A stretch of DNA of 64,000 bases from the IMG/VR virus record IMGVR_UViG_3300032242_001280; one strand, 5' to 3'. A program made the translations under genes and the position numbers. Every line of letters starts with the position of its first letter. The first letter of the stretch is position 1. The DNA comes from a virus. The notes under the pieces were generated by a model, which did no database searches, was not told the DNA's origin, and was given only the letters and a program-made list of their open reading frames with translations. Positions 5,936-62,672 of the stretch are shown here, piece after piece.

Positions 5936-7723
5936 TTAACCGCCACCAAGTGCTGCGCCAGCAGTAGCGCCACCTGCAGCACCGCCGCCAGCACCGCCAG
6001 TTGGACTTGGAGCACCTGCTGCACCAATTTCTCCGCCTGGTTCTGGAGGAGGACTACCCCCTAATCCGCCTTCTTGACCAGTAGCTTCAATATCACTTAG
6101 CGTTTCAAGGTCAGTATTAATACCGCCAGGCGTTACGCCTACTGTACGAAGATCACTGCCTTGCATTGCGTTTTCTGGAGTTTTTTCGCCACGCTCTTCA
6201 TGCCACATTCTATCGTTTTCTGCCATTTCAATCTCGCTAAGACCAAGATATTTCTTCATCATAAATCTCTTGCTAAGAAACTCAGTAGCAATGATTTGAG
6301 TAAATGCACCAATTCTGCTGGTGTTTAGTTCAATTTCACGATAAGCAGCAAAGTTTTGTGGCTCATTGAAACGCAATTCAAAAATAGAGTTATCAAGATT
6401 GAATCCACGCCATTTTAAAAATAATTTAAATTCTGTATCAAACTTTGGAGAAATGTATTTTTGTAAACGCTTGCAATATTCATTGAAACGATATTCTTGA
6501 ATAAGTGCAGTTGTTACTTTGCCATCACTAAATGCGCGTTCACTTTCTTCTGGACCTGTCGGAAGATAAGAACTAGGTATACGAAGAGCGCGATACATCT
6601 TGTTAGTAAAGAATCGCAGATCATCAATCTCGCCTAGATTTTGACCGCCTGGCAATACTTCAACAGATGAACCACGACCTTCTGCTGTTTGTGGAAAGAA
6701 GAAATCTTCGTTCATGCTCATTGGATTATAAGAAGCATCCATAAGATTGCTACCACCACCACTTTGTGTAGGTATGCGGCGTTGATTGATTTCATTCTTA
6801 ACACGCTCAACAAATTGCATTGCAAGATGCGCTGGCATATTACCAACATCAATCTTAAACATGCGGCGTTCAGGAGCACGAGAGATACGATAGATTAGAA
6901 TAGCGTCTTCTAATAGTTCTTTTTGCTTGAATACTTTAAAGATAGCTTCAAACAGACTAACGCCAAACGGCCAGTTAACATCTAAACCTTCTGTCAAACT
7001 CAAATGAACAATATGTTCTGCTGCAACAGGAAACTCGTTGTTACCTGCACCAAAGCGAGTATTAGGTGAAAATAATTCACCGCCAGCAGTATAACTTCTG
7101 CTGCCGCCCATATAAGGAGCAAATGCATAACTGTCATTTGGACCAGGCGGTCTCGTAATAGTATTGTTTTGTAGATTAGGATTCAAGTCACGGATATAAT
7201 AGATTTCTGGAACCTTGCCTTGACTTTCATTGACAATAACTTTAGATACACGATTCATTTCAGTCCAGAACCATTTATAAGTTTCTGGGTCACGAACAAA
7301 TACTTGATCACCATATTTCAGCGTATTACGAAAAATTTTAAACATGCGCTGGTCAAATTCATTTAACTTATACCAAGCAATAAGTTGTTCTTTTAGAATC
7401 ATTGTTTCATTTTCAGTAGCATCTTCATGAAAATGTAACTGAAAAGCTGTTCTGGTATCTTCGTTTGTTTGTGTGCAGAACTCACTCAAGATATCCATTG
7501 CACTATTTGCTTCGCTATCTAAATCCATGTTTTCGTATTGAGTATAACGATCAATACGATTAGGATGACCGCTGTAAACATCTGGTAACATGCTTTGATA
7601 GTTGCGATATGCAGCATTTGCTTGTGAACCAAGATAGTTATAACTGCTATAATCAGTTACACTGCCATTAACTGGGCTGTATGCACCATCACTTACAATA
7701 CGCCAATGCTTTTTCCACGCCAT
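5936..7723 (-). CDS. gp20: Portal vertex protein, gp20-like
   Basis: Motifs LLEDAILIYRISRAPERRMFKIDVGNMP, EDFFFP, LPGGQNLGEIDDLRFF; TAAATA at 7743-7748. Confidence 0.96.
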   Translation of the reverse strand: MAWKKHWRIVSDGAYSPVNGSVTDYSSYNYLGSQANAAYRNYQSMLPDVYSGHPNRIDRYTQYENMDLDSEANSAMDILSEFCTQTNEDTRTAFQLHFHEDATENETMILKEQLIAWYKLNEFDQRMFKIFRNTLKYGDQVFVRDPETYKWFWTEMNRVSKVIVNESQGKVPEIYYIRDLNPNLQNNTITRPPGPNDSYAFAPYMGGSRSYTAGGELFSPNTRFGAGNNEFPVAAEHIVHLSLTEGLDVNWPFGVSLFEAIFKVFKQKELLEDAILIYRISRAPERRMFKIDVGNMPAHLAMQFVERVKNEINQRRIPTQSGGGSNLMDASYNPMSMNEDFFFPQTAEGRGSSVEVLPGGQNLGEIDDLRFFTNKMYRALRIPSSYLPTGPEESERAFSDGKVTTALIQEYRFNEYCKRLQKYISPKFDTEFKLFLKWRGFNLDNSIFELRFNEPQNFAAYREIELNTSRIGAFTQIIATEFLSKRFMMKKYLGLSEIEMAENDRMWHEERGEKTPENAMQGSDLRTVGVTPGGINTDLETLSDIEATGQEGGLGGSPPPEPGGEIGAAGAPSPTGGAGGGAAGGATAGAALGGG

Positions 7724-11403: not shown

Positions 11404-11434
11404 TAAATACTATTAGAGTGTCAATTATTATTTA
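11404..11434. promoter_or_regulatory. Face-to-face late promoter cores
   Basis: TAAATA on + at 11404-11409 (towards gp26) and on - at 11434-11429 (towards tape measure). Confidence 0.6.
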
Positions 11435-11448
11435 TGGAAGTAAAAAAC

Positions 11449-12303
11449 ATGCAATCAATGAATCTAGCAGGTAACCCACTAAGTGGGCATTTTCGTCAAC
11501 CTAGTATCTTTGTTAAGCTGCCAAGCGGCGGAAGATATTGGGCACCACAAAGTTTAAATTTACCAGCCAACGGCGAAGTTGGTGTGATGCCAATGACAGC
11601 CAAAGATGAAATTATGTTGCGCACACCAGACGCACTAATGAATGGACAAGGGATTGTCACTGTAATTCAAAGTTGCTGCCCTGCCATTGTCAACGCATGG
11701 GGAATGCCTACAGTTGATGTAGATACGCTGTTAATAGCAATTCGTATTGCTACCTATGGCGATAAGATGGATATGGACAGCGATTGTCCTAATTGCAAGC
11801 ATGATAATCGTCACCAGTTAGAACTTGGTCCTGTTCTTATGAAGGTTCGTTCACCTGATTATGATAAGACAGTTGAAGTTGATGGTTTAACAATTAAATT
11901 TAAACCTACTAACTATCTACAAGGCACAAAAAATAACATTGCTAGCTTTGAAGAACAAAAGATTATTCAGTTACTGAACAACGAAGACCTTGACGCTGAC
12001 ACTCGTAAAGCACAATTTGATGTGCATCTTAATAAGATCATTGACAGCAACACTAATATTTTAAGCATGAGCACAGAAAGTATTACTACTGAAAGCGGCG
12101 ATATTGTTACAGATAGAGCTTTTATAAGCGAGTTTTATACAAATACTAGTAACAAAAATATTAAAGCAGTTCAAGCAAAACTCAAAGATATTAGTGAAAC
12201 AGCAGGACTACCGCCAGCAAGAGTTAAATGTGAGGAATGTAGTACTGAATATAATGTTGCAGTTACATTTGATTACGCAAATTTTTTCGAGCCACTATCC
12301 TAA
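11449..12303 (+). CDS. gp26: Baseplate hub/tail assembly chaperone, gp26-like
   Basis: Motifs NPLSGHFRQP..LPSGG, PMTAKDE, AIRIATYG and two CxxC pairs; ends ANFFEPLS. Start 11449 (after GGAAG) preferred over 11434. Confidence 0.8.
   Translation: MQSMNLAGNPLSGHFRQPSIFVKLPSGGRYWAPQSLNLPANGEVGVMPMTAKDEIMLRTPDALMNGQGIVTVIQSCCPAIVNAWGMPTVDVDTLLIAIRIATYGDKMDMDSDCPNCKHDNRHQLELGPVLMKVRSPDYDKTVEVDGLTIKFKPTNYLQGTKNNIASFEEQKIIQLLNNEDLDADTRKAQFDVHLNKIIDSNTNILSMSTESITTESGDIVTDRAFISEFYTNTSNKNIKAVQAKLKDISETAGLPPARVKCEECSTEYNVAVTFDYANFFEPLS
12279..12288 (+). other. Putative -1 ribosomal frameshift slippery site A AAT TTT TTC
   Basis: XXXYYYZ heptamer in the gp26 frame; the -1 frame is open from 12273 through the gp51-like ORF. 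Confidence 0.65.
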
Positions 12304-12323
12304 ACCTTTCGCATGAAGAGGTA

Positions 12324-12518
12324 ATGGCACTGGTGGAGAGATACGAAAGTGATGTAAGAAGCATTAAGAAGAATATTCTTAAAATGTGCTGGCATATGCG
12401 TGGTGGTATCTCTTACGAAGAAGCAATGATGATGTCTGGACAAGAACGAGATATTATTGCCAAGATCATTGAGGATAACCTTGAGACCACTAAGAAGAGT
12501 GGTTTGCCTTACTTCTGA
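12324..12518 (+). CDS. gp51: gp51-like baseplate hub assembly protein, probably the C-terminal part of a frameshift fusion
   Basis: CWHMRGGISYEEAMMMSGQER motif; follows gp26. Confidence 0.7.
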   Translation: MALVERYESDVRSIKKNILKMCWHMRGGISYEEAMMMSGQERDIIAKIIEDNLETTKKSGLPYF

Positions 12519-12536
12519 TTTATTATCGGAGTTTTA

Positions 12537-12597
12537 TAATCACCTTCGGTGATTAGTTCAGGAGCTATCGCTCCTTCACCTTTTTTCATTTCTTTTT
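12537..12597 (+). terminator. Tandem hairpins plus T-rich tract (probable terminator zone between convergent units)
   Basis: TAATCACC-TTC-GGTGATTA (12537-12555) and AGGAGC-TATC-GCTCCT (12560-12575), followed by T runs. Confidence 0.5.
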
Positions 12598-12599
12598 AA

Positions 12600-12930
12600 C
12601 GATCAATCTTTTGCATTTCATATAGATTGATGTTTTCATATAGACTCCATTTCTGGAGTCTATAGATTAATAACACTTCATATGAGTATCAGTAATCACA
12701 TTAACAAGAAGAACTCGTGTAATTGAGCGGGGCGGTTGGCCTGTACCCCTTTAATCTAGTAGACTATTCCAGCGGATCAACATATTGCCCTTGTTAACGA
12801 ACAATATCTTGCTGTGGTTGCTTTTTCTCAGAGCCACAATCATTTTTTGTGCTTTGTCCCAATAGGCCAGCAATGAACGGAGTGCTGTCAACCTTCTAAC
12901 GGTATATATGGGGGGACTGTCAGTGCCAAA
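12600..12930 (-). ncRNA. Candidate structured ncRNA of unassigned family
   Basis: ORF-free, with multiple helices including an 11-bp stem with GAAA loop, a G-U-containing stem and a potential pseudoknot; these favour the minus strand. Confidence 0.6.
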
Positions 12931-12935
12931 ATTGC

Positions 12936-13601
12936 CTAATGTGCCTGTTTTTGCGCTACTACGAAGTAACCTGTGTTATCTGAGCCAGTCTCTAATTTCT
13001 TTATGTTAAAAAAATTGCCTTCTTTGCCTTTTATATATAAGAACGATTTGCCATCAATTTCAATTACATATTCATAGTGTATTAATATAGTATAGCCATA
13101 TTTGCCAAGTAATTCAATAAGTTTTTCTTCAGGTAATTTACTAATGTATGTATCTTTTTTTATGTCTTCTGCAAAAATAAATTCAGCAGTTTGTTTTTTT
13201 AAAACATATTCAAAATCAACCAGTGGTAACACCTGTGAACACCATAATGTATCATATTTTAATTTTTTGTCAATAAAATCTTCTAATTTTATTTGATGAT
13301 CAACTACATTTATTGTTATTTTTTTATTTTTTAAAAAATAAAATTTATTTTTAAGCCATTTTTTTTGAAAATCAAAATATTTTTTATTAGGTTCAACTGA
13401 ATAAACTGTGTTTGTTTTACAAAAATCAAAAAAAGGTATAAATCGTCCTAGGCCGCTGCCGCCGTCAACTATTATTTTATTTTTTAAAATATTATTAATA
13501 ACATTAATTTTTGAAAGTTTTACAAAAAAATCTAATGAGATATTTGAAAAAAACGCATCATCGATGCCTTGTATATTAAACGGTTGAGTTAATTGGGTCA
13601 T
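12936..13601 (-). CDS. Class I SAM-dependent methyltransferase-like protein
   Basis: IVDGGSGLGRF (motif I), VYSVEPN (motif II), KYDTLWC; extremely AT-rich. Confidence 0.7.
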   Translation of the reverse strand: MTQLTQPFNIQGIDDAFFSNISLDFFVKLSKINVINNILKNKIIVDGGSGLGRFIPFFDFCKTNTVYSVEPNKKYFDFQKKWLKNKFYFLKNKKITINVVDHQIKLEDFIDKKLKYDTLWCSQVLPLVDFEYVLKKQTAEFIFAEDIKKDTYISKLPEEKLIELLGKYGYTILIHYEYVIEIDGKSFLYIKGKEGNFFNIKKLETGSDNTGYFVVAQKQAH

Positions 13602-14705
13602 TTAACTTCTATCTTTAATAAAATACTGGTTACTCATAACAGTTTGAGATATTAGTGAACCATGGCTTCTCATCACATTTAACCCATCAGTGTATATCTT
13701 AAAAATTTTATCCTCACTGTCTTTTATGTGATTATAATAAGAAAGTGTATCTGGTGATTTTTCATCGTTGCTAGAAAATAATTTATGTGTGCCATCAATG
13801 CTACTTATATGACTATGTAGCAGTTTGCATCTGCCCATAGCCAAATTCCAATCTTTATAGTACCTAGTATTAACGCCATTGCCTAATCTATTCTTGCCTT
13901 GTATAGCATGTACTAATCCGCCTGTCAATATTTTAAGTGATTCAAACCAACGAATTACCATATGACACTGTTTTATATGTAATTGCGGCAAATCGCTGCT
14001 ATAATAAAAATTTTCTTGGTCTGCTCCCATGAAATCAACGCCCATGTTGTCTGAACAAAACCCATACCATTTGCCATCTCGCAGTAACACTCTTGCTTTA
14101 TCAATGCCCATTATATCGCCACGAATACCTTTTTTATAACTTGCTTTCAAAAAATCATCCATAACCGTTGTAGCAAATATTCTGCTAGTCTTGCTGATTT
14201 TTAAGCTACAACTTGGGTGATAAATCCAGTCGCTGCCAAACTTACTATAAAAATTTTCTATAGCTTTAGATTCAACACGCACTACATTGATTTTTAAATT
14301 AGGATAATATGTATTTTTTATATAGTTGGCGTGTAATATAGCAACTTCAACTTCAGGATCATCAAAGAAATCACGACGATCATATATTAGTAATTCATCT
14401 AACAATATGTTGTTATCTACAAACGCACGAAGAATAGTATGACTATCATAGCCACTGCTGTACCATAGTGCCAAATAAGTATACTTGTCACGAACTTGTT
14501 GACAGCGAGTACGCATCAACTCACTCCAAGTTTCTTGCGGTTCCGCAGTCCAGTCTACCTTTGACCAAGTATCTTCCATCCAGTTAAATTGAATGTTGTT
14601 AAAATTTCCATTAGCTAATTCAATAGCACGAATTTTACTATATTCAATCGTATTTCCGTTGACTAGATAATAACTTTCGTTATTAGATATATGAAATTTG
14701 CTCAC
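13602..14705 (-). CDS. PP-loop/adenine-nucleotide alpha-hydrolase-like (asparagine synthetase-like) protein, paralogue 2
   Basis: LALWYSSGYDSHTIL, a variant of the SGGxDS PP-loop. Confidence 0.65.
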   Translation of the reverse strand: MSKFHISNNESYYLVNGNTIEYSKIRAIELANGNFNNIQFNWMEDTWSKVDWTAEPQETWSELMRTRCQQVRDKYTYLALWYSSGYDSHTILRAFVDNNILLDELLIYDRRDFFDDPEVEVAILHANYIKNTYYPNLKINVVRVESKAIENFYSKFGSDWIYHPSCSLKISKTSRIFATTVMDDFLKASYKKGIRGDIMGIDKARVLLRDGKWYGFCSDNMGVDFMGADQENFYYSSDLPQLHIKQCHMVIRWFESLKILTGGLVHAIQGKNRLGNGVNTRYYKDWNLAMGRCKLLHSHISSIDGTHKLFSSNDEKSPDTLSYYNHIKDSEDKIFKIYTDGLNVMRSHGSLISQTVMSNQYFIKDRS

Positions 14706-15808
14706 TTGTATACTCTATCTCGCAGATAATACTGCTTACTTAAAATTGTATTTTCAATGGCATTTCCATAACTTCTCATTCTTTTTAAACCGTCGTCATA
14801 TATTTTAAAAATTTTCTTTTCATTTTCTTTTATATGATTAAAATAGTTAATAAAATCTGGAGATTTTTCATCATTTGTGTGAAAAAATTTATGAGTTCCA
14901 TCAATACTAGTAATATTACTATGCATTAGCTTACACCTGCCCATTGCTAAATTCCAATCTTCATAGTGTTTTGTATGTATTCCGCCTAGTTTTCTATCTT
15001 TGCCTTGAATGTTATGCACTAGATTCCTTGTTAACTCTGGTAAACTTTCAAACCAATCAATTACCATATGGCATTGTTTTATATGAAGTTGCGGTAAGTC
15101 ATTGCTATAGTAAAAATTTTCTTGATTTGTTCCCATAAAATCATATGCGCTGCTATCTGAGCAAAATGCGTACCATTTACCGTTGCTTAGCAATACTTTT
15201 GCTTTATCAATACCCATTATATCGCCACGGATGCCCTTCTTATAGCTTGCACTTAAAAAATCATCCATAACAGTAGTAGCAAAAACTCTGCTTGTTTTAC
15301 TAATTTTTAAACTATAACCTGGATGGTATACCCAGTCTTCACCAAATTTATTATAAAAATTTTCTATTGAAGATGCATTGCTGCGAACAACATTAATTTT
15401 TAAATTAGGATAATATGTATTTTTTATATAATTTGCATGAGTAATTGCAACCGCAACTTCAGGGTCGTCAAAGAAATCACGGCGATCATATATTAGTAAT
15501 TCATCTAATAATATATCATTGTCAACGAAAGCACGAAGGATGGTGTGACTATCATAACCGCTGCTATACCATAGCGCCAAATAGGTATACTTGTCACGAA
15601 TTTGTTGACAACGGGTGCGCAAAAGTTCGCTCCACGATTCTTTTGGATCAATTGTCCAATCTATATTGGCCCAAGTATTTTCCATCCAACTAAATTGAAT
15701 TTTATTTAAATCGCCGTTAGCTAATTCAATAGCACGAAGTTTACTATATTCAATAGTATTATTGACTAGATAATAGCTATCATCATTGAATATATGAAAC
15801 TTAGTCAA
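14702..15808 (-). CDS. PP-loop/adenine-nucleotide alpha-hydrolase-like protein, paralogue 1
   Basis: Same motif; colinear with and highly similar to 13602-14705. Confidence 0.65.
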   Translation of the reverse strand: MTKFHIFNDDSYYLVNNTIEYSKLRAIELANGDLNKIQFSWMENTWANIDWTIDPKESWSELLRTRCQQIRDKYTYLALWYSSGYDSHTILRAFVDNDILLDELLIYDRRDFFDDPEVAVAITHANYIKNTYYPNLKINVVRSNASSIENFYNKFGEDWVYHPGYSLKISKTSRVFATTVMDDFLSASYKKGIRGDIMGIDKAKVLLSNGKWYAFCSDSSAYDFMGTNQENFYYSNDLPQLHIKQCHMVIDWFESLPELTRNLVHNIQGKDRKLGGIHTKHYEDWNLAMGRCKLMHSNITSIDGTHKFFHTNDEKSPDFINYFNHIKENEKKIFKIYDDGLKRMRSYGNAIENTILSKQYYLRDRVYK

Positions 15809-16400
15809 CCAATCCTAGTCCTTCAACACTGTTTAATCCTACTTGAATAGAGATTCGTGGACTAGGAATGTTTCGAACACCATGTAATATACGAGTTTGA
15901 ATAACAGTCCATGTTCGTAGCGGTATCTGGAAACTTTCAACGATATCTAATAAACTGTGATCGTTACAGCGGTCGCCATTGTTTCGCATAAGTGGTTTGC
16001 CGCGCTCATGGTAAAACACTGTCTTGTGATCCTCGCCACCGCCGTCAAGCAAATAAATTAAGCTATAATTACGGCTTAAATCACAATGTGCGCCATTTGT
16101 ATCCTTGCCATCTTTGCCTGTATCTGCCTTGGCAATACGAATATTCACTACACTTTTATCTGTAATATTAGCATATACCCAATCTCGCATCTCATCATCT
16201 AAACTATATGCTAAGTTTGGCGCATTAATTTTCTTAACACCATCGACGATAATAGTGTCAGTGGTAATTTTATTCCAATCTATTTGCCGTTTACCCTGTG
16301 GCATTTGTTCTAATTTTGTATCCATTTGTGCATATGCACGATCAATTAAGTGTTGCGGAACATGCGGCAAATCTTGTAAAATTTTATAAAACCAAGTCAT
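15801..16400 (-). CDS. 2OG-Fe(II) oxygenase-like (DSBH) protein
   Basis: HxD (GAHCD), YSLIYLL strand, distal H (ILHGV) and RxS (PRISIQ). Confidence 0.7.
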   Translation of the reverse strand: MTWFYKILQDLPHVPQHLIDRAYAQMDTKLEQMPQGKRQIDWNKITTDTIIVDGVKKINAPNLAYSLDDEMRDWVYANITDKSVVNIRIAKADTGKDGKDTNGAHCDLSRNYSLIYLLDGGGEDHKTVFYHERGKPLMRNNGDRCNDHSLLDIVESFQIPLRTWTVIQTRILHGVRNIPSPRISIQVGLNSVEGLGLVD

Positions 16401-16410
16401 AATAATTCCT

Positions 16411-17157
16411 TTAATAACTGTATTTCTTTTTTAAACTATTCAATAAACTATTAATAGTAACGCCTGTTAGTGCAATAACAAATAGTATAGCATACATCTG
16501 GTCAATATCTAATTTACTTTTAACATCAATAATATAACTTCCTAACCCAAAATATCCACCAATGCTTCCAAAAACTACTTCAAGACTAATAAGAATACGC
16601 CAGCTATTGGCCCAACTTGTGCTTGCAATTCCTATTAGGTTTCCAATAGCGGCTGGCATATAAACTTTAAGCAGTGCTTTAGAGCCACTCCATTGTAAAT
16701 TTCGCACATGTTTTTCCCATTGCTCATGCACTGATTCTATTGCTCGTAGAATTTGTAAGCCGCTAGTCCATACTATATTCCATACAATGATACTGTATAC
16801 GACCGCTGCGCCTAGCCCCATAAACAGGCTCATAAAGGGCACCAGCACGAAACTTGGCAGTGGATTGAAGTATGCGCAATAACGCTCAAATAGCGCCTTT
16901 AACCATTGATATTTCATACAAAGTAATATGATACCAATAGTAATAAACATACCAATAATATAACTTAATACAAGTGTTCGCATAGTATAATAGAAACTAA
17001 ACCAAAACTTGCTGGTCCATATCAGATCGTATAGCGCAGATAAAATACTTGTACTATCAGGAAATATAAGTGGTTCTTGCACAATAATGTATAAAAAATG
17101 CCATCCTATTAATATAATAGAAATAGCTAACGCATTATAAAGAAAGGATCGAAACAA
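16411..17157 (-). CDS. ABC transporter permease (NitT/TauT/SsuC-like)
   Basis: About six TM segments; PLPSFVLVP and GLGSYI motifs; in an operon with the ATPase and binding protein. Confidence 0.88.
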   Translation of the reverse strand: MFRSFLYNALAISIILIGWHFLYIIVQEPLIFPDSTSILSALYDLIWTSKFWFSFYYTMRTLVLSYIIGMFITIGIILLCMKYQWLKALFERYCAYFNPLPSFVLVPFMSLFMGLGAAVVYSIIVWNIVWTSGLQILRAIESVHEQWEKHVRNLQWSGSKALLKVYMPAAIGNLIGIASTSWANSWRILISLEVVFGSIGGYFGLGSYIIDVKSKLDIDQMYAILFVIALTGVTINSLLNSLKKKYSY

Positions 17158-17740
17158 TTAAATCATCCTCATGAGTTATATTTTTGAGACCATTCTTACT
17201 AAGCAAATATATGCTGTCACCTATTATTCGTGCTTCGGTTACATTGTGTGTAACCCATATAACGGTTAAATTTTCTTCGTGAACAATTTCACGGAAATCT
17301 TTTGCAACAGTTGCGCCAGTTAATCCATCTAGCGCACTCAGTGGTTCGTCGCATAGTAATATACGCAATCCACTGCACATTCCACGGATAAGTGTAAATC
17401 GCTGGCGTTGCCCGCCACTTAACTTTGATGGACTATAATCTAGATACGGTTCTAAGTTCCATCGTTTTACAAGATCAATATATGGTTTTTGACAAACTAA
17501 TTCTAAATTTTTTCGCACAGTCATCCATGAAAATAACTGATGACTTTCTTGAAAAATACGAAATTGGTTTTTAACTAGAATATCACTTTGGGTAGCAAGT
17601 GAAGTAAGCAAACTAGTCTTGCCCACTCCACTTGTTCCCATGATAACAGCAATTTCCCCTGTCTGCACCGACAAATCTATCGGCGCAAACAGTGGAGTAT
17701 TATCACTTACTGTAACTGTATGGTTACTAAGGTTAATCAC
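17135..17740 (-). CDS. ABC transporter ATP-binding subunit
   Basis: Walker A GTSGVGKT, signature LSGGQRQR, Walker B LLCDE, H-loop VTH. Confidence 0.95.
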   Translation of the reverse strand: MINLSNHTVTVSDNTPLFAPIDLSVQTGEIAVIMGTSGVGKTSLLTSLATQSDILVKNQFRIFQESHQLFSWMTVRKNLELVCQKPYIDLVKRWNLEPYLDYSPSKLSGGQRQRFTLIRGMCSGLRILLCDEPLSALDGLTGATVAKDFREIVHEENLTVIWVTHNVTEARIIGDSIYLLSKNGLKNITHEDDLIVSILSL

Positions 17741-18720
17741 TTGACTAACTTTTCATCCCATACCATGTCACTGTGCTTTTTATCTTTACCAGCGCCGCTT
17801 AGGATACCAGCACGATATAAGAAATCTATATATCGCAGCGTACTATCTGTCTTATACTGATAAACATCATGGTTTTCTTTCTTCTGTTCAACTAACTCAT
17901 TTAGTGTTGGTTCAACTACTTCGTCTTTTGTCATATAGGTAATCAGCATTGGGCGTGGATTCTTTTCAAATTCCGCGATAGCTGCCTTTTGTGCAGCAAC
18001 CCATGCACGAGCAAGTTTAGGATTTGCATCTAACCATTTTGTCGTAGAGTATACACTATTAAGAACACCTGTTGTTTTAGTTGGGTCTTCATTGTGTGCA
18101 ATAATATGCGCTCCTTTGCTGACAGCAATATTTTGCCATGGAACGCCAATAATACCGCAATCAATTTCAGGGTTTGTTTTAGTAATTTGTGCAAGTGCTT
18201 GATCACGAGGCATTACAACGATATTACTGTCAAACTTAGCATATTCTTTATCACCAAACTTTGCAGCAGTATATTGGCGCAATTGCATCTGTTCGCCGCT
18301 ATTCAAGCCTTTCATAGCAATTTTAGTGCTTGGTGTAATATCTTTTAACGATTTAATCTTAGGATTGCCGCATACTATCCACTGATCGTATTCTTCTGCG
18401 CCAGCCAATAGTTTAACCTTAGCTGGGTCTTTATCAAAAAGAATACCAAAAGCATTTGCTCCGCCAAATACAATATCAATTTGACCTAGCAAAAGTGCTT
18501 CGTTTGCTTTTGTTGCTTCAAGAATATCTACATAAGATACCTTGATATCATTAATTCCTTCTTTCTTGGCATATTCTGGAAGCAATTCAACGGTTTTATA
18601 TAGTAGTGGTTCGCTGCTTGCATACTTAATCATTCGATTGACACGAATTTCAGTTTCTGCATGCGCAACCGACGCAAGAGATAGTAATAGAGCGATAGTT
18701 GTTATTGTTCTGTTAAACAT
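17737..18720 (-). CDS. ABC transporter substrate-binding protein (NitT/TauT/SsuA-like)
   Basis: Signal peptide MFNRTITTIALLLSLASVAHA; EALLLGQIDI, IKSLKD and WLDANP motifs. AAGGAG RBS favours ATG 18720 over 18756. Confidence 0.88.
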   Translation of the reverse strand: MFNRTITTIALLLSLASVAHAETEIRVNRMIKYASSEPLLYKTVELLPEYAKKEGINDIKVSYVDILEATKANEALLLGQIDIVFGGANAFGILFDKDPAKVKLLAGAEEYDQWIVCGNPKIKSLKDITPSTKIAMKGLNSGEQMQLRQYTAAKFGDKEYAKFDSNIVVMPRDQALAQITKTNPEIDCGIIGVPWQNIAVSKGAHIIAHNEDPTKTTGVLNSVYSTTKWLDANPKLARAWVAAQKAAIAEFEKNPRPMLITYMTKDEVVEPTLNELVEQKKENHDVYQYKTDSTLRYIDFLYRAGILSGAGKDKKHSDMVWDEKLVK

Positions 18721-18934
18721 TTTTTTCTCCTTCCATAAAGTTAACAGATAACACAAAAAACATCAATATAATTGATGCGTATAGTATTAAATTTTTAATG
18801 AAAGGAGCTTGTAGCATTGGTGGGACTAGCTACTACGGTCGGCGTTTGGTAAGGCATTACTTACGGTACAGAACTTGCGTTCTTCGCGTCGATTATGAGT
18901 TCCGAGGTCACCAAATGTGGCCTTGCTCCAAAAT
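18721..18934 (-). promoter_or_regulatory. Riboswitch-like structured 5' leader
   Basis: Multi-hairpin domain closed by GGAGC/GCUCC; the 3' strand can alternatively pair with the Shine-Dalgarno (10 bp); a terminator-like hairpin with U-tract lies between them. Confidence 0.6.
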
Positions 18935-18937
18935 TAT

Positions 18938-19576
18938 TTATGTTGGTGTTGCAGCAATAGAAATTTCTTGAATATAATGTTTTGTATCATTAATAATATC
19001 TGATAGCTGTTTTTCTATATCATTAACTTTTATATGTGGAGTACTGTAAAATTTTTCATCTGATTCAGGTGTCCACTTATTGCCTAATCTATTTTTATTA
19101 AAATTTGTTTTAATTTTTCCAACTCTTAAAAGCGTCAATCCTATTAGTGGGTTGTTTATTTCTCTGCGCAGCGCGTCTACAAATGCTTTTTGTGAATACC
19201 TTGATAACCCATATATTAAATGATTGTGCATTATTCTGTCTGTGTTGTGTACACTTCCTACAAATATAGCTTTACTCCATTTATTGCCTCGTTGGGTTAA
19301 CCAACGATGAGTAAACTTAATTTGATTTACAAGATTAGTATTCAGTGTAAGTTCTATATCTTCCCATGATTTTTCAACAAAAGGAGTAAACCCATTTGGA
19401 TCAACGCCAGCACACATGACAAAATAATCATATTGAGATAAGTCAGTATCATATGACACATTGTTTATGTTAAACGCCTCTCTACCAACAACAGTTGTAT
19501 CAATATCATTGTTTAACAATACTTCTGAAATTTTTTTACCAACACCTGTTGTGCCGCCAATAACGATAGCTTTCAT
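18938..19576 (-). CDS. Short-chain dehydrogenase/reductase (SDR)-like protein
   Basis: MKAIVIGGTTGVG Rossmann motif, CAG, NTNL, YxxxR instead of YxxxK. ATGA overlap with the upstream gene fixes the start at 19576. Confidence 0.8.
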   Translation of the reverse strand: MKAIVIGGTTGVGKKISEVLLNNDIDTTVVGREAFNINNVSYDTDLSQYDYFVMCAGVDPNGFTPFVEKSWEDIELTLNTNLVNQIKFTHRWLTQRGNKWSKAIFVGSVHNTDRIMHNHLIYGLSRYSQKAFVDALRREINNPLIGLTLLRVGKIKTNFNKNRLGNKWTPESDEKFYSTPHIKVNDIEKQLSDIINDTKHYIQEISIAATPT

Positions 19577-20565
19577 AGCTTTCCTATAATTTCTTGCAGT
19601 GTCATTACTTCCCAACCACTACATAGCACACCTTCGCGGCGCATTTGGTCAATTACTAATGCCTCGTATAGTATATTTTCACTTGTATTTTCATAATGTT
19701 TTTTATCTTTTATAGTATTCCATATATTGTTTGCTATCATTATTTGTTTTGAGTTGTGTGTTATAAACTGTGGATGCATAAAATTAACTTCACCCCAGTC
19801 AAAATCAGCTATATTAGTTGATTCCATATCGGCAGCAAATTTTGATATAAATTCAATATCTAATATTTCTCTCATACTATAATTAAAAACATATTTTCCA
19901 GTAACATAGACATCGTTTTCTTTTCGATCATACGCAGTTGAATCGCCGCCAATGTCATCTCGTTCCCTGATAGTATTTCCGTAATTATATCTTTCTCTGA
20001 ACATATCTATTGTATCTTGCGTTAATACATGATTATTATACGGATAGATTCTTTCCCAATTATCTACCATAAAATTTCTACCTTCAATCCAGTCTTTGTC
20101 TAATGGATTGCCATATTCTTCATCATTTAACAATCTTATGTTCCACAATCCTTTTGAATGAAGATTTATGGCTCCTAATTTGCGATGATATTCACTGTCT
20201 TCGTCATGTACATTGATAATAACGGGTTCTTCTTCAATTCGCATTATCCAAAAAACACTATTATGCCATCCCTTCATCCAATTTTTTTGATTTTGATCAA
20301 AAGTAACATTGCCGCGAAAACCAACTGGATATATTGTACCTGTTGACCAACGATGTTTAATTATACTTTGAATAATAAATTCAATAGTTTGGTGCGCTGG
20401 TTTCTTAATATGTACATGCGCACTGCCATCTGTTTTGAAAGGGGTATCTACTGTTGTATTGGCGGTTTTACGATTTGCTTTGCATAATGCCCAGTGCAAA
20501 TAACTTCCATAATATCCGCCTGGATATAATAGCCATACATTTTTATCAAACATCATATTATCCAC
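19573..20565 (-). CDS. Hypothetical protein (N-terminus reminiscent of a sulfotransferase/P-loop-like fold)
   Basis: 330-aa ORF overlapping both neighbours; WLLYPGGYYGSYLHWAL. Confidence 0.55.
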   Translation of the reverse strand: MDNMMFDKNVWLLYPGGYYGSYLHWALCKANRKTANTTVDTPFKTDGSAHVHIKKPAHQTIEFIIQSIIKHRWSTGTIYPVGFRGNVTFDQNQKNWMKGWHNSVFWIMRIEEEPVIINVHDEDSEYHRKLGAINLHSKGLWNIRLLNDEEYGNPLDKDWIEGRNFMVDNWERIYPYNNHVLTQDTIDMFRERYNYGNTIRERDDIGGDSTAYDRKENDVYVTGKYVFNYSMREILDIEFISKFAADMESTNIADFDWGEVNFMHPQFITHNSKQIMIANNIWNTIKDKKHYENTSENILYEALVIDQMRREGVLCSGWEVMTLQEIIGKL

Positions 20566-21073
20566 ATGCTATTGAAACCATATCTTTGTTTAATTCCCAA
20601 AAACGATTATATTCCATGATTGCCCACCGAACATCTTTATATTGATACAGCATATAATATTCTACAAATAGCGGATGATCGTAATAAGAATCAAATTCAA
20701 CTGCAACAAATTTGCCTTTACGATTAAATTTCATGATTAAAATATTAAAGTCACCATCGTCGCTAGCATCCATTAACTGGTCTAACCATACATCTAACTG
20801 CTTACAACTGCCGCTAAACAATTGATGGAATGGAAAATCTGCATAACTTTTGCATTCTGCATTAAATTTAGGAAAACTTTGGCCAGGAATAATATCGCCT
20901 TTAAAAGAACGAATTTGTCCTTCGTGCAGATATTCTTTTCGTTTATTATTGGTGCCGCCAACATAAGCACCACTGCCTGGCGCACGAATAAATGTTTCGT
21001 TATATAGGTTTGTTAAATGTTTGGCAACATCGCGCTCCCAACTATTGCCTTTGTTTTTACTTGGACTGGTCAT
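20558..21073 (-). CDS. Holliday junction resolvase, PD-(D/E)xK family
   Basis: SKNKGNSWER, RAPGSGA, GDII and ECK motifs. Confidence 0.85.
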   Translation of the reverse strand: MTSPSKNKGNSWERDVAKHLTNLYNETFIRAPGSGAYVGGTNNKRKEYLHEGQIRSFKGDIIPGQSFPKFNAECKSYADFPFHQLFSGSCKQLDVWLDQLMDASDDGDFNILIMKFNRKGKFVAVEFDSYYDHPLFVEYYMLYQYKDVRWAIMEYNRFWELNKDMVSIACG

Positions 21074-21981
21074 TTAAAATATACTTCTTCTACCCATTGT
21101 TTGGCAAAGTTGCTTTTGTTGTTTTTGATACTGCAACTATTTACGCAGTGATTGATAGGTGTTTCTGATTTCCAACTATCAATTATATTATCAAAGTTTT
21201 TATAACTTAAATCTTTTACTTCAGGATTAAAAGGATCGGTTCCAATAAAACAACATGGCCATAGCTTTCCACTATAGTCCATATACAAACTTTGTTCTTC
21301 TAGTGCATGACATTTTATAGTTGGTGTATTAATAAGAGTATTTTCATACCCATCTGGTACTTCGAGAAAATCTATTGGTCTGGTAGTAAATCTACGACTT
21401 ACCTTTGCCCTGAACGCACTAAATCCCATATTTTTAGCCAATTGCTTAGCTTCTTCAACTTGGTGTTGATTATGTTTGAAAATTAACATATCCCAATGTG
21501 CTTTTCCACCAGCGGCAATAAATGCTTGTGCGTTTTTCATAATTTTATCCCATTGAGTATTACGGCGATATATGTGATTTGTATCACTTAATCCATCGAT
21601 ACTGAATACGCAATAATCTTTAGCCTTGTTTAACCTTTTTCCAAGCATTTGCCACCAACTTTGGCTTCGCAAACTGCCATTAGTATTCATTCCCAATATC
21701 ATATCTGGGTTAATATAACGAAACCAATCATAAATTGACAAAGTGTGTGCAGATGCAGCAGGGTCTCCAAATGAACCACACATAAACATTTTGTCTAAGT
21801 TTGATATAAATTCATCGGTTAGTACAACTTTAATTTTATCTAACGATAAATCTTGTAAATTTAATCGTGGATCAACAGTAATCCCATCAAGTAAGAACCT
21901 TGCACATTGAGGACAAGCCGCATTGCAGCGGCTTGTTGGTTCTAAGTGCAGTACTTTTACATTGGAGATATCAAACTTCAT
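21070..21981 (-). CDS. Radical SAM enzyme with C-terminal Cys-rich (twitch/SPASM-like) region
   Basis: CNAACPQC, GSFGDP, NTNG, FSIDG, WPCC motifs. Confidence 0.9.
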   Translation of the reverse strand: MKFDISNVKVLHLEPTSRCNAACPQCARFLLDGITVDPRLNLQDLSLDKIKVVLTDEFISNLDKMFMCGSFGDPAASAHTLSIYDWFRYINPDMILGMNTNGSLRSQSWWQMLGKRLNKAKDYCVFSIDGLSDTNHIYRRNTQWDKIMKNAQAFIAAGGKAHWDMLIFKHNQHQVEEAKQLAKNMGFSAFRAKVSRRFTTRPIDFLEVPDGYENTLINTPTIKCHALEEQSLYMDYSGKLWPCCFIGTDPFNPEVKDLSYKNFDNIIDSWKSETPINHCVNSCSIKNNKSNFAKQWVEEVYFK

Positions 21982-24089
21982 ACTGTTTCTACATCACTAC
22001 TATAACTTGTAAATCCGTTTTCTTTTGTTACGGTTAGAATATTATTTACACGACCGCTCAGTTCATCACGATGTGACACGAGGAAAATACTCTTGTTTCG
22101 TTCACGACCCATGCGTTTTAGGATTGCTAATGAATTTTCAACACCACTTGCATCCATGCCACTGTCAATCAACTCATCAATAAACAACAGATTAATGTGT
22201 TGATACAGCGATTCCCACACATCGCGGAAAGCCCATGACAGTGAAAGAATAAGACGATTGCGCTCGCCACGACTCAAGTTATCAAAGTCTAGATCGCGAC
22301 CAAGCTCTGTGATTTCAACACTAAGGTCATTTTGGAACTGAACTTGATGTGGAAGACCAATAGCAGCAAGATAGGAACCAAGACGACTATTAAGATAAGC
22401 AAGGTTTTGGTCAATGATCTTCTTACGAACAAAACTATCTTTGTTTGTCAACATCTTCAACAAGAACTCTTGATGTTCTTGCGCCTGTGTAAACTTATTA
22501 ATAGCATCCCATGTAACTTCTTGAATAGCATTTCGCTCCATTTCAACAATTTGGTCACCATACGGATCAGGTTCTTCTTGTTTTTGGATAAGAGAATTAG
22601 CCAACTGTTCAAGAACATTTCTATGGTTTAACGCATCTTCAATCGTATCATAATGGAACGAGCTAATCTGACTTTCAGCAATCCACTCCCTATCGCTTAA
22701 TTCAGTTGCTAGTTCCGTAATCTGTTCACTAAACGGACTGGTCTCTAGCATACGACTTTCAAGAGATTTATTCATATTCTCAAGAGTATTGCGATGATTG
22801 AGTGCTTCTTCAAGTGTTTTATAATATGGCTTTGGTGGTGGTGTCAGATCACCAATTTCTTTAAGCGTATCATAATGATCCATACGCTGACCTTCGCTTG
22901 CAATAAACTGCAGTGCGCTTTCACGCAGTGCTGCTTCTTTTGCTGCAAGAATATCTGCTTGATTGTCATCATGTAGTTCGCTGCCACAAGCATAACACTT
23001 GTGGTTTTTAAGGTCTTCAATCTCTTTCTTTAACTTAGATTGTGTCTTTTCTTCTTTAGCATTGGCAGCATCGATAGACGCAATCCATCTTTTTGCTTCA
23101 TCACGGCGCTTTACTTTAGCATCATAATCAGCGATATCACGGTGAATAGCAATTTCACCATCGATATCAATACTAGAAAGATTTGCAATATTAAGTTTAA
23201 TTGCATCACACTCATCAAGTTGCTTTTGTTCCCATAAGCTTTGGCGAACCGTAATGCTTTTTAACTGGTCTTCTAGTTTCTTATTAGCAAGAAACCGCTC
23301 GCGCAGACGATGATTGTTAATTTCTGCATCAATATCGATGTCTGCCAAGCTAATCAGATTTTTTTCAATCTTAGAAACATCTTCTTCATGCTTTGCGAGC
23401 CACAACTTCTGGCGTTTCTTAAGACTATCAATCTGTTCCATAATACGAACATTAGCATCTTGAACTGCTTTGATACGAATCTTTTCTTCTTGAATCAAAT
23501 CCTTGGTATTTTTGATTTGGTTCTTTAAACTATCTGCTTTTTCGCTAAGGATAGTAATACCAAGAAGCTGTTCAATGACCTGTCGTTGATCATTTGCTCG
23601 CATACTCAAGAATGGCTCGGTGTAGGTATTGAGTGCTACAACATGCTTGAACATGTCTACACTCATTCCTAACAACCGATCAATGTCGTTCTGCGTCTCG
23701 CGGCTATCGCCTTGACTATCATCTTGATAACCATTTTGTTCTTGTCCATCAATATACAGCTTAGTAATATTAGGACGACGACCGCGCTCAATGCGATATT
23801 GACGGCTACTTACTTCAAAATCAACAGTAACCATCATGTTTTTACCATTGGTTTTGTTGATTAGATTATCTTTCTTGATATTTGTAAGGGCTTGACCGTA
23901 GAGGCCATAACTCAGGGCGTTGATGATTGTGGTTTTACCCGTGCCATTTCTAGCACCAGTGTCATCACCTCCTAAATCTAAATTTTCACCTAACACCAGT
24001 GTCAGGTCTCTACGGTCAAAGTTCACGGCTTGGGTCGCATTGCCCACGCTCATGAAATTCTTAACTGTCAACGAGTTAATTTTTAACAT
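21978..24089 (-). CDS. gp46: Recombination endonuclease ATPase subunit, gp46/SbcC/Rad50-like
   Basis: Walker A NGTGKT, zinc hook CYAC, signature LSRGE, Walker B LFIDE, VSH. Confidence 0.95.
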   Translation of the reverse strand: MLKINSLTVKNFMSVGNATQAVNFDRRDLTLVLGENLDLGGDDTGARNGTGKTTIINALSYGLYGQALTNIKKDNLINKTNGKNMMVTVDFEVSSRQYRIERGRRPNITKLYIDGQEQNGYQDDSQGDSRETQNDIDRLLGMSVDMFKHVVALNTYTEPFLSMRANDQRQVIEQLLGITILSEKADSLKNQIKNTKDLIQEEKIRIKAVQDANVRIMEQIDSLKKRQKLWLAKHEEDVSKIEKNLISLADIDIDAEINNHRLRERFLANKKLEDQLKSITVRQSLWEQKQLDECDAIKLNIANLSSIDIDGEIAIHRDIADYDAKVKRRDEAKRWIASIDAANAKEEKTQSKLKKEIEDLKNHKCYACGSELHDDNQADILAAKEAALRESALQFIASEGQRMDHYDTLKEIGDLTPPPKPYYKTLEEALNHRNTLENMNKSLESRMLETSPFSEQITELATELSDREWIAESQISSFHYDTIEDALNHRNVLEQLANSLIQKQEEPDPYGDQIVEMERNAIQEVTWDAINKFTQAQEHQEFLLKMLTNKDSFVRKKIIDQNLAYLNSRLGSYLAAIGLPHQVQFQNDLSVEITELGRDLDFDNLSRGERNRLILSLSWAFRDVWESLYQHINLLFIDELIDSGMDASGVENSLAILKRMGRERNKSIFLVSHRDELSGRVNNILTVTKENGFTSYSSDVETV

Positions 24090-24094
24090 GCTTT

Positions 24095-24123
24095 ATTATA
24101 CCTGAATTAAAGTGAATTGTAAA
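24095..24123 (-). promoter_or_regulatory. Sigma70-type promoter giving a probably leaderless gp46 mRNA
   Basis: TTTACA-N17-TATAAT-aaagc-ATG, no Shine-Dalgarno. Confidence 0.7.
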
Positions 24124-25120
24124 TTTCCATTAGCAATTTAGTATCATAATGTTGTGTATCAAGGTTACTAATTTGACTTAACACAATCTGGTCTACGCTC
24201 TCAAATTGCACATCACCGATAGCATTTTCAGTCAATACTTCTCCGCGATGTTGAATGAGGCTCAATTCACGAACGCCATATGTTTTTTGCATTTCATCTT
24301 TAAGAAAAGTTGCTTCTTCATATGAAATAGAAACATCTAGCTGAACGCGAGCATAAGTCCTATCATCAAGATGATCTTGTGGAGCTTCTAACATCTGTAG
24401 CAACGAAAGAGTGCGATAACGAGGCGCAGCAGCCCAATTATGATACACAGGAGTTTCGCCCCACTGCAGTATCATTGCGCCACGCTCATCATCCCATGCA
24501 TCTGCATAGTTGTGTGGAAAGGCGTTTCCAATATAGTGGACATTGCCTTTTATTTGTCGCTTATGAAAATGTCCTGTAAACACAATGTCTACGCCGCCAA
24601 GGTCATCTACCTTTAGACCGCCATGATCTGGCATTTCTACCTTGGCGTTCATAAGAAAACTTGGCAATTCAAAGTGACCCATCACATATTTTGACTTGAT
24701 TTTGCGCATACTCTTGTATTCCTCGCCAATAAGCCAAGGAACAAAAGTAACATCGCCTTCTGTGTGTTGATTATTGATTAGTTCAATATTCTTGAACTTT
24801 TCAACATACTTGATGCTTGTGATAGTTCTGCGATCTTTATGATATAAATCATGATTGCCAGTTATGAACATTACTCGCAACCCAAGGTCGTTAAGACGCT
24901 CAAGTGTGCGCAAACTTGCATCCATCGTGTTAATATTCAAACTATTTCTAGTATCATGAAAATCGCCAAGAAAGAGAATAGTATCACAATTCTCACTCTT
25001 GACTAGATCAATAAACCATGTTACATAGTTCTCACAATCTGCGAGAAATTGTGCGGAGTTGCTCTTATAACCTAAATGTAGGTCGGTGAATACTGCTGCT
25101 TTTTTGAACAAGTTTGTCAT
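24107..25120 (-). CDS. gp47: Recombination nuclease subunit, gp47/SbcD/Mre11-like
   Basis: Metallophosphoesterase motifs DLH, GD, GNHD, GHFE, GHFH. Confidence 0.95.
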   Translation of the reverse strand: MTNLFKKAAVFTDLHLGYKSNSAQFLADCENYVTWFIDLVKSENCDTILFLGDFHDTRNSLNINTMDASLRTLERLNDLGLRVMFITGNHDLYHKDRRTITSIKYVEKFKNIELINNQHTEGDVTFVPWLIGEEYKSMRKIKSKYVMGHFELPSFLMNAKVEMPDHGGLKVDDLGGVDIVFTGHFHKRQIKGNVHYIGNAFPHNYADAWDDERGAMILQWGETPVYHNWAAAPRYRTLSLLQMLEAPQDHLDDRTYARVQLDVSISYEEATFLKDEMQKTYGVRELSLIQHRGEVLTENAIGDVQFESVDQIVLSQISNLDTQHYDTKLLMEIYNSL

Positions 25121-58157: not shown

Positions 58158-58187
58158 TCTGCTAAATATTTCTGTTGGTGGATTAAT

Positions 58188-62633: not shown

Positions 62634-62672
62634 CCAATCTGTAAATAAATACATTAGAAAATAGGTGGGAAG

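Follow-up and report, generated by a model that had tools for sequence, protein, structure and literature searches.

A complete importer and probable modifying enzymes in a T4-like phage

What would a phage do with a complete solute importer and a row of enzymes encoded directly behind it? This question is raised by a cassette of seven genes under a structured RNA leader in a 64,000-nucleotide (nt) stretch of viral DNA (IMG/VR record IMGVR_UViG_3300032242_001280). The whole stretch is hereafter called the window, and positions refer to it unless a locus label (L001 and so on) is given. We favor, with moderate confidence, the reading that the operon is a late-expressed, RNA-switched module for the import and conversion of an organic acid, and that it represents one version of a wider phage regulon.

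The seven open reading frames (ORFs) lie on the minus strand, overlapping or abutting, and span positions 12936-18756. In gene order, the first two junctions are overlaps of 4 and 23 nt, the third pair is separated by 10 nt, the next two pairs overlap by 8 and 4 nt, and the last two genes abut; these coordinates confirm the arrangement of an original prediction made from the sequence alone, which had described seven co-oriented genes that overlap, abut or are 10 nt apart. The first ORF covers 17737-18756, and its likely start is the ATG at 18720, with a GGAG 5' of it. The features of the cassette and its leader are as follows.

18935-18941, minus strand: ATAAATA box resembling a T4 late promoter, overlapping the stop codon of a short-chain dehydrogenase/reductase (SDR) gene (sequence reading)
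18795-18934, minus strand: structured leader RNA with an aptamer-like multi-helix junction, candidate orphan riboswitch (covariance model R1, 107 bits)
18721-18807, minus strand: predicted expression platform, with the 3' strand of helix P1 CUCCUUUC (anti-Shine-Dalgarno), a terminator-like hairpin plus U run, and the Shine-Dalgarno (SD) sequence GGAAGGAG (fold)
17737-18720, minus strand: substrate-binding protein (SBP), probably of the NitT/TauT (NMT1/SsuA) type, that carries a Sec signal peptide (..SVAHA|E) (library matches below cut-off, annotation of relatives)
17135-17740, minus strand: ATPase of an ATP-binding cassette (ABC) importer, 201 amino acids (aa), with Walker A, LSGGQ, Walker B and H-loop (ABC_tran, PF00005, 63.8 bits; cut-off 25 bits)
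16411-17157, minus strand: ABC permease (BPD_transp_1, PF00528, 56.2 bits; cut-off 26.4 bits)
15801-16400, minus strand: minimal 2-oxoglutarate (2OG)/Fe(II) dioxygenase, 199 aa (HxD...H...R motif, predicted double-stranded beta-helix (DSBH) fold)
14702-15808, minus strand: PP-loop ATP-pyrophosphatase copy B, AsnB-synthetase-like (motif, predicted fold)
13602-14705, minus strand: PP-loop ATP-pyrophosphatase copy A, a paralogue of B at 75% aa identity (repeat families D5 and D6)
12936-13601, minus strand: probable class I S-adenosylmethionine (SAM) methyltransferase (Methyltransf_PK below cut-off, VDGGSGLG motif)

The phage carrying this cassette is a freshwater T4-like myophage. A domain search of the window found Portal_T4 at 5936-7723, a T4_baseplate hub gene at 11434-12303 and gp46/47-like SbcCD genes at 21978-25120, together with a PDDEXK/RusA-like nuclease, a radical SAM gene and the SDR. 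The cassette had been placed between a recombination operon and tail chaperones. The phage setting holds, but the adjacent gene on the downstream side encodes the baseplate hub rather than a tail chaperone.

A profile of the twin PP-loop family was searched against the viral contigs of IMG/VR and gave 63 viral loci. The order SBP, ATPase, permease, 2OG oxygenase (1-3 paralogues per relative) and PP-loop enzyme recurs in at least 18 independent viral contigs, which come from different samples; the site is constant, with the gp46/47-nuclease block on one side and the baseplate-hub gene on the other. The cassette proteins of these lineage loci are 40-99% identical to those of the window, and the flanking core genes 75-90%. 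The same cassette also lies between the same phage core genes in further contigs from ENA and JGI, obtained from other samples. The genes therefore do occur together elsewhere, as a co-inherited unit. That the contig is an assembly chimera or contains bacterial contamination was a concern attached to the original prediction; genes of host-like kinds and a dip in G+C content to 27% across the methyltransferase gene would suit it. However, because at least 18 independent contigs have the cassette at this site, with phage core genes on either side, and since its SBP and PP-loop proteins have no close bacterial relatives, this explanation can practically be dismissed. The cassette DNA had no match in 50,697 GenBank phage records.

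The importer and the 2OG/Fe(II) oxygenase

One gene each for an SBP, a permease and an ATPase indicates a complete importer of the NitT/TauT type, in agreement with the three-component system proposed earlier. The ATPase and permease score above their Pfam cut-offs. The SBP is NitT/TauT-like below the curated cut-offs, with 19.8 bits to NMT1_2 (cut-off 24.7) and 28.4 bits to SsuA_fam (cut-off 163.5); its relatives are annotated with PF13379 and, by JGI, as NitT/TauT. Just 23 clusters at 90% identity were found for it, those placed on contigs being of this phage lineage, and the next relatives are only 26-28% identical. A PDB sequence search with the SBP returned nothing useful. The nearest NCBIfam models of the permease are SaoP, TauC and NtrB, and its search against the GenBank phage records gave only three matches at ~21% identity.

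The earlier call of a 2OG-Fe(II) oxygenase is upheld by both motif and fold. Residues H105-x-D107, H173 and R182, which correspond to the iron triad and the 2OG-binding arginine, are invariant in 15 homologues. The AlphaFold2 (AF2) model (mean predicted local distance difference test, pLDDT, 91.6) is a double-stranded beta-helix, and Foldseek gave a probability of 1.0 against DSBH oxygenases including PHD2, ABH2, 6n1f and proline cis-4-hydroxylase. These fold matches are generic and indicate no specific subfamily. The window oxygenase has no Pfam match, PF02668 (TauD) included, and a PDB sequence search was of no use.

The order SBP, ATPase, permease and dioxygenase is that of tauABCD in Escherichia coli, and one may ask whether the cassette scavenges organosulfonates, importing taurine or alkanesulfonates from which the dioxygenase would free sulfite for a sulfur-limited host. 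Besides gene order, the best NCBIfam matches of the transporter (SsuA_fam, TauC and SsuB-like models) agree with such a role, and true TauD/TfdA genes come first behind the same leader RNA in five other phage loci (among the matches listed). Nevertheless, every transporter match falls far under the NCBIfam equivalog cut-offs, and desulfonation has no use for the conserved PP-loop amidoligase. A TauD identity was rejected for the window oxygenase on account of the missing PF02668 match and of fold neighbors that resemble prolyl 4-hydroxylases (P4H) and AlkB, and with it membership in tauABCD. We therefore consider organosulfonate scavenging improbable.

The twin PP-loop enzymes and a putative methyltransferase

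The motif S-x-G-Y-D-S is invariant in the twin family (SSGYDS in the window, with S, G, D and S invariant) and takes the canonical form SGGxDS in most distant relatives. The AF2 model (pLDDT 90) shows a Rossmann-like alpha/beta fold of the adenine nucleotide alpha-hydrolase type. AsnB is the best fold match (VIA Z 10.6, 290 aligned residues, root-mean-square deviation (rmsd) 5.8), followed by beta-lactam synthetase (Z 9.6, 268 residues, rmsd 6.2); TsnB9 is also among the best. Dozens more PP-loop enzymes score Z 5-8, and LarE was found by Foldseek at E 4e-4. The invariant motif and this AsnB-synthetase-like predicted fold bear out the twin PP-loop enzymes of the original prediction. The protein has ~370 aa (368 aa), with ~55 residues ahead of the PP-loop domain and no glutaminase domain. 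Neither twin has a match in Pfam, NCBIfam or PHROG, a twin and 10 relatives gave no Pfam match (PF00733 and PF06508 included), the PDB sequence search returned nothing useful, and the 50,697 GenBank phage records contain no match to the protein. A true AsnB was rejected for lack of an N-terminal nucleophile (Ntn) glutaminase domain and of an Asn_synthase (PF00733) match. QueC was likewise rejected, given no PF06508 match and the higher scores of AsnB-like folds.

The family is large and appears viral. At 50% identity it comprises 1,959 representatives; the 27 Atlas clusters closest to it are viral without exception, and no close bacterial relatives were seen. Between the twins, the ratio of nonsynonymous to synonymous substitutions (dN/dS) is 0.083 with a dS of 1.95, so that both copies appear to be old, maintained and under purifying selection. 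The duplication is confined to the window, L001 and L002. Among 43 distant viral loci of the family, a gene for the SBP TctC adjoins the PP-loop gene in 25, and genes nearby often encode TctA, porins, small 2OG paralogues or radical SAM proteins.

GMP synthetase and QueC are among the fold matches, as are TilS, ThiI and NcsA, and this brings up a module for purine or deazapurine salvage and amination (compare the xanthine NMT1-motif operons and the chemistry of QueC and GuaA), which would provide the phage with modified or additional nucleobases for its DNA. Xanthine riboswitches are known to control SBPs of the tauA/NMT1 type and 2OG-dependent dioxygenases (PMC7373994), more distant Atlas clusters have a QueC or Asn_synthase Pfam on 13-14% of their members, and radical SAM genes are frequent neighbors. 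Yet the AsnB-type enzymes stand above QueC and GuaA in fold score, the leader is neither the NMT1 motif nor any preQ1 class in Rfam, the window showed no FolE, QueD, QueE or DpdA genes, and the DctP and TctC partners found in related loci (see below) point to carboxylates and not to purines. This makes a purine pathway very improbable.

The last gene had been called a methyltransferase. The Methyltransf_PK match (23.3 bits, E 5e-5) is under the 27-bit cut-off, and a PDB sequence search gave no match; together with the motif I-like VDGGSGLG (GxGxG) in the translation, it weakly supports a putative class I SAM methyltransferase. Within the lineage loci, the gene is limited to the window, L001, L002 and L498, and the window's near relatives are ~99% identical. 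The methyltransferase and the second PP-loop copy are thus lineage-specific additions.

A conserved leader RNA behind a late-promoter-like box

The leader is 217 nt long and contains a multi-helix element of ~125 nt that is conserved, with compensatory changes, in all lineage loci. In an alignment of 74 sequences, which was fitted to the model and is thereby biased in favor of structure, 94.9% of cells pair and 14/21 pairs change on both sides; none of 500 shuffles reached the observed value, and slid controls were 17-50% paired. The junction has the invariant nucleotides GACGC / UUUAC / AACGCC..CCGUA, and L402:4003-4136 is an example of a copy of the consensus type. No Rfam 15 match was obtained for the window at gathering thresholds, and the region 12250-19100, searched at E<=10, gave chance-level matches only. 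A conserved, covarying RNA with no Rfam counterpart accords with the riboswitch-like leader that had been predicted.

The T4 late promoter has the consensus TATAAATA. A TAAATA resembling it lies 4-8 nt 5' of the RNA in 80/83 unique copies, compared with 1.1% of background 32-mers, and a promoter and terminator scan returned promoter-like sites at chance level. If the box acts as the T4 consensus suggests, the leader RNA would form the 5' end of a late transcript.

The minimum-free-energy fold of the leader pairs the anti-SD CUCCUUUC with the SD GGAAGGAG, an alternative to P1. Compensatory variants of this pairing occur in L003, L004, L006 and L014. In four relatives the duplex has -12.8 to -16.3 kcal/mol (z -3.2 to -4.0). 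Such an alternative, preserved by compensatory changes, fits the architecture of an inducible translational ON switch. The cassette had also been described as ligand-inducible; in this lineage the P1/SD alternative is consistent with inducible control, the ligand being presumed.

Several loci carry the RNA in multiple form. In L386, L425 and L019, the inner unit of the leader (GACGC, hairpin, UUUAC, hairpin, AGAACGCC) is doubled in tandem inside one outer scaffold, and it resembles tandem aptamers. Two full copies lie ~1 kb apart in each of L396 (4996-5123 and 6056-6180) and L474 (8256-8385 and 9252-9370), and each copy apparently heads its own gene.

The same RNA heads uptake genes in many other phages

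A covariance model built from the lineage leader also matched unrelated viral loci, where the RNA lies directly 5' of TctC, porin and PP-loop genes. A generalized leader pattern found at least 120 stretches in viral contigs, most of them genuine by eye and by the model, which matched 74. From these searches we assembled an RNA-first set of at least 73 unique viral loci. The median distance from the RNA core to the start codon is 47 nt. Genes were counted as the first gene behind the RNA and among the next five ORFs. Among the matches listed, the counts are as follows.

DctP, the SBP of tripartite ATP-independent periplasmic (TRAP) transporters: first gene in 19/73 loci, among the next five ORFs in 19/73
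TctC: first gene in 15/73, among the next five ORFs in 30/73
PP-loop enzyme: first gene in 7/73, among the next five ORFs in 26/73
TauD-family dioxygenase: first gene in 5/73, among the next five ORFs in 5/73
Porin: first gene in 4/73, among the next five ORFs in 6/73
SBP_bac_8: first gene in 3/73, among the next five ORFs in 3/73

On the same matches, a transport part is present in 53/73 RNA loci and in 23/26 of those bearing a PP-loop gene. Most relatives in this regulon carry an SBP alone (DctP or TctC). Phage-encoded Gram-negative porins (Porin_4) stand directly behind the RNA in L019:6776-7951, L400, L434, L447, L451 and L453; judged from gene content, a porin gene beside an SBP gene would be an encoded entry route through the outer membrane. 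Other recurrent genes encode hexapeptide transferases, fatty-acid-desaturase-like proteins, AMP-binding enzymes and MoxR-type AAA ATPases. Altogether, about a hundred further contigs of uncultured phages carry the same RNA and the same PP-loop family alongside importers of other types, and this recurrence suggests a widespread viral uptake program.

The RNA was found in viral contigs only. It was not seen in the ~950 bacterial genomes sampled: model R2 had no match in 151 genomes of one order and five others, and the general pattern gave one chance-looking match in 401 bacterial genomes and none in another 401. A loose pattern returned 120 chance matches in GC-rich genomes, 0/120 having the full motif, and mostly noise in viral contigs. 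With the strict lineage pattern, 55 stretches were obtained from metagenomes, of which 13 were real by the covariance model, all of them lake-phage-like. Two RNA copies searched against the GenBank phage records gave no match. A literature search yielded no description of phage TctC or DctP cassettes, nor of the leader RNA.

The PP-loop family, TctC/TctA and the leader RNA were also observed on IMG/VR contigs labeled GVMAG and binned as giant-virus MAGs (L040, L050 and L435), which are probably misbinned phage contigs.

Import followed by conversion, or two separate functions

How might these parts work together? The operon would probably be transcribed from the late-type promoter, and its structured 5' leader would set translation: closing of P1, presumably on small-molecule binding, would unmask the SD and permit translation of the operon. 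The secreted SBP, a permease dimer and an ATPase dimer would form the importer, and the 2OG/Fe(II) dioxygenase may then oxidize the imported compound or a derivative of it. The two stand-alone PP-loop enzymes are predicted to adenylate a carboxylate and pass it to ammonia or an amine, giving an amide, and in this lineage the methyltransferase could add a further step. In the wider regulon under the same RNA, the uptake part would be interchangeable (TRAP DctP, TctC/TctA of the tripartite tricarboxylate transporter (TTT) type, SBP_bac_8 or porins), with the PP-loop enzyme and oxygenases recurring.

As for the substrate, the ligands of DctP and TctC SBPs are organic anions, and carboxylates are what AsnB-type PP-loop enzymes adenylate; an organic acid, carboxylate or sulfonate, is for this reason the most likely cargo. 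The PP-loop family repeatedly adjoins SBPs of unrelated classes under one RNA, which argues that the compound imported is then converted by the PP-loop enzyme. The original prediction of import plus modification gains from this linkage (TctC beside the PP-loop gene in distant loci, and the same leader RNA heading those modules), but methylation, which it had included, would be a trait of this lineage only.

An alternative is that the cassette combines two functions: the importer would scavenge a nutrient (a sulfonate or another nitrogen or sulfur source), the oxygenase and PP-loop enzymes would modify a macromolecule such as a DNA base, tRNA, virion protein or glycan, and the RNA, rather than a riboswitch, would be a general stabilizer of late mRNA or a translational operator bound by a protein. 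The fold neighbors of the oxygenase, which include prolyl hydroxylases, AlkB-type nucleic-acid demethylases and ribosomal oxygenases, allow for this, and so does the presence of TilS, QueC, ThiI and NcsA among those of the PP-loop protein. In one PP-loop subgroup (L027, L028, L033, L034 and L041), moreover, the neighbors are not SBPs but a DegT aminotransferase, an NAD-dependent epimerase and methyltransferases, which hints at sugar-acid amidation in those phages. The RNA, which sits directly behind the late-promoter-like box, also heads non-transport genes: in L388, L416, L417, L430, L432 and L407 these include a recurrent pair of a desaturase-like di-iron protein and a hexapeptide-repeat transferase, and other copies head DUF2061 and an AMP-binding enzyme with no transporter nearby. 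Because of such loci, the RNA could be a general leader of late mRNAs or a protein-binding operator. Against two separate functions, the PP-loop gene directly adjoins an SBP gene in most loci and does so with two unrelated transporter classes, an association that is hard to explain without a shared substrate; in addition, invariant junction nucleotides and a multi-helix junction are typical of ligand-binding aptamers. On balance, we regard this alternative as unlikely.

Several of these observations nonetheless weigh against import followed by conversion. The transporter-less loci behind the RNA are not explained by an import model, the fold matches of the oxygenase take in enzymes that modify proteins and nucleic acids, and the SBP scores below the curated family cut-offs of Pfam and NCBIfam. 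Four SBP classes may be headed by one RNA and still differ in substrate, and since some PP-loop relatives reside in sugar-modification neighborhoods, the substrate of this enzyme may differ between subgroups. Finally, the anti-SD signal was detected only in the window lineage; in the wider set an automated test found none, although this test was partly weakened by wrong choices of start codon, for example an upstream TTG in the window.

Import and conversion of an organic acid remains our preferred reading. More tentatively, the evidence may be extended to a new riboswitch class, so far found in phages alone, that would respond to an organic-acid metabolite and turn on a pan-phage regulon for uptake. 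In it, four SBP classes and porins would feed one class of compound to a PP-loop amidoligase family seen to date in viruses alone, with oxygenases alongside.

Neighboring elements and other features of the window

Two further features flank the cassette.

18938-19615, minus strand: SDR (FabG-like), just upstream of the leader (adh_short 42.6 bits; phrog_3142)
~12620-12905, minus strand: structured RNA of ~290 nt between the cassette and the baseplate-hub gene (conservation, compensatory pairs)

The SDR gene is present in 11/18 lineage loci, and an extra oxygenase sometimes also lies just upstream of the cassette. The extent first proposed for the cassette was accurate for its seven genes but left out this SDR, which often travels with them.

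The original prediction also had two structured RNAs bracketing the cassette. The 3' RNA is real: its mean column identity is 79%, above that of neighboring genes, 25/72 predicted pairs are compensatory, and invariant G-U pairs assign it to the minus strand. Matches to its pattern came from 29 viral contigs belonging to this phage group, and a baseplate-hub match lies beside it in 15/19 newly fetched loci, including loci with differing cassettes. As it stays by the baseplate-hub gene even where the cassette differs, this RNA appears to be an element of the phage backbone; it was rejected as a cassette part, and the functional bracketing falls away.

Between the nuclease block and the cassette, an unannotated gene of 330 aa (19573-20565) and a radical SAM gene (21070-21981), both on the minus strand, are variably present or absent among relatives, which marks this region as hyperplastic. 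On the plus strand, a single ORF of 4,911 aa (38304-53039), with neighboring ORFs of 1,096-1,481 aa, brings to mind the giant proteins of the VrlC-like kind in pelagimyophages and cyanomyophages (PMC7029224). Fibre-like genes at 56795-59431 and 59443-63784 (plus strand) hold 99-nt (33-aa) repeats in arrays, along with several further repeat families, and three tandem repeats of 126 nt occupy positions 1-292, within an open-ended minus-strand ORF (2-1327).

Significance and comparison with known systems

The leader RNA, with at least 73 further unique loci, the PP-loop family, and the link of both to four SBP classes and porins were all absent from the libraries searched. Should the RNA prove to be a riboswitch, its ligand would identify a metabolite that many aquatic phages cause their hosts to take up late in infection; this would bear on viral effects on the turnover of dissolved organic matter, and the RNA, SBP and enzyme would make an experimentally tractable orphan trio. 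If the pan-phage regulon proves true, many uncultured aquatic phages would import and convert an external metabolite late in infection.

The closest bacterial analogues are tauABCD and the xanthine-riboswitch operons, and the cassette belongs to neither. With tauABCD and ssuEADCB it shares one permease and one ATPase gene, a probable SBP of the NMT1/SsuA type and, in the case of tauABCD, the gene order. It differs in being phage-borne and in having an oxygenase outside TauD/TfdA, one or two amidoligase-like PP-loop genes behind it, probable RNA control with a late-promoter-like box, and proteins that are only remotely related. Bacterial operons under the xanthine (NMT1-motif) riboswitch are similar in that a structured 5' RNA precedes, within a single operon, genes for 2OG-dependent dioxygenases and for an ABC SBP of the tauA/NMT1 type (Yu and Breaker 2020, PMC7373994). 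The phage RNA, in contrast, is unrelated to that motif, looks like an ON rather than a repressing switch, and heads operons with an added PP-loop enzyme.

For the enzymes, the closest parallels are the C-terminal domain of AsnB, beta-lactam synthetase and the carbapenam synthetase CarA, whose folds match the PP-loop protein at Z 10.6, 9.6 and 7.9, respectively, and which adenylate a carboxylate before a C-N bond is formed. CarA works with the 2OG oxygenase CarC, a pairing of an AsnB-like enzyme and a 2OG oxygenase that is also found in the cassette. The phage protein differs in lacking an Ntn glutaminase domain and an Asn_synthase match, and no CarB-like partner accompanies it. QueC and the 7-deazaguanine pathways of phages offer another example of a stand-alone phage PP-loop enzyme, often located by radical SAM genes; here, however, there is no QueC Pfam match, and other queuosine-pathway genes were not seen in the window.

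Auxiliary genes for nutrient uptake are known in phages mainly as single SBPs, such as PstS of cyanophages. As with PstS, an SBP supplied by the phage would raise solute uptake by the host during infection. In contrast to these single proteins, the T4-like phage lineage described here encodes an entire importer coupled to downstream enzymes, under a probable RNA control of its own.

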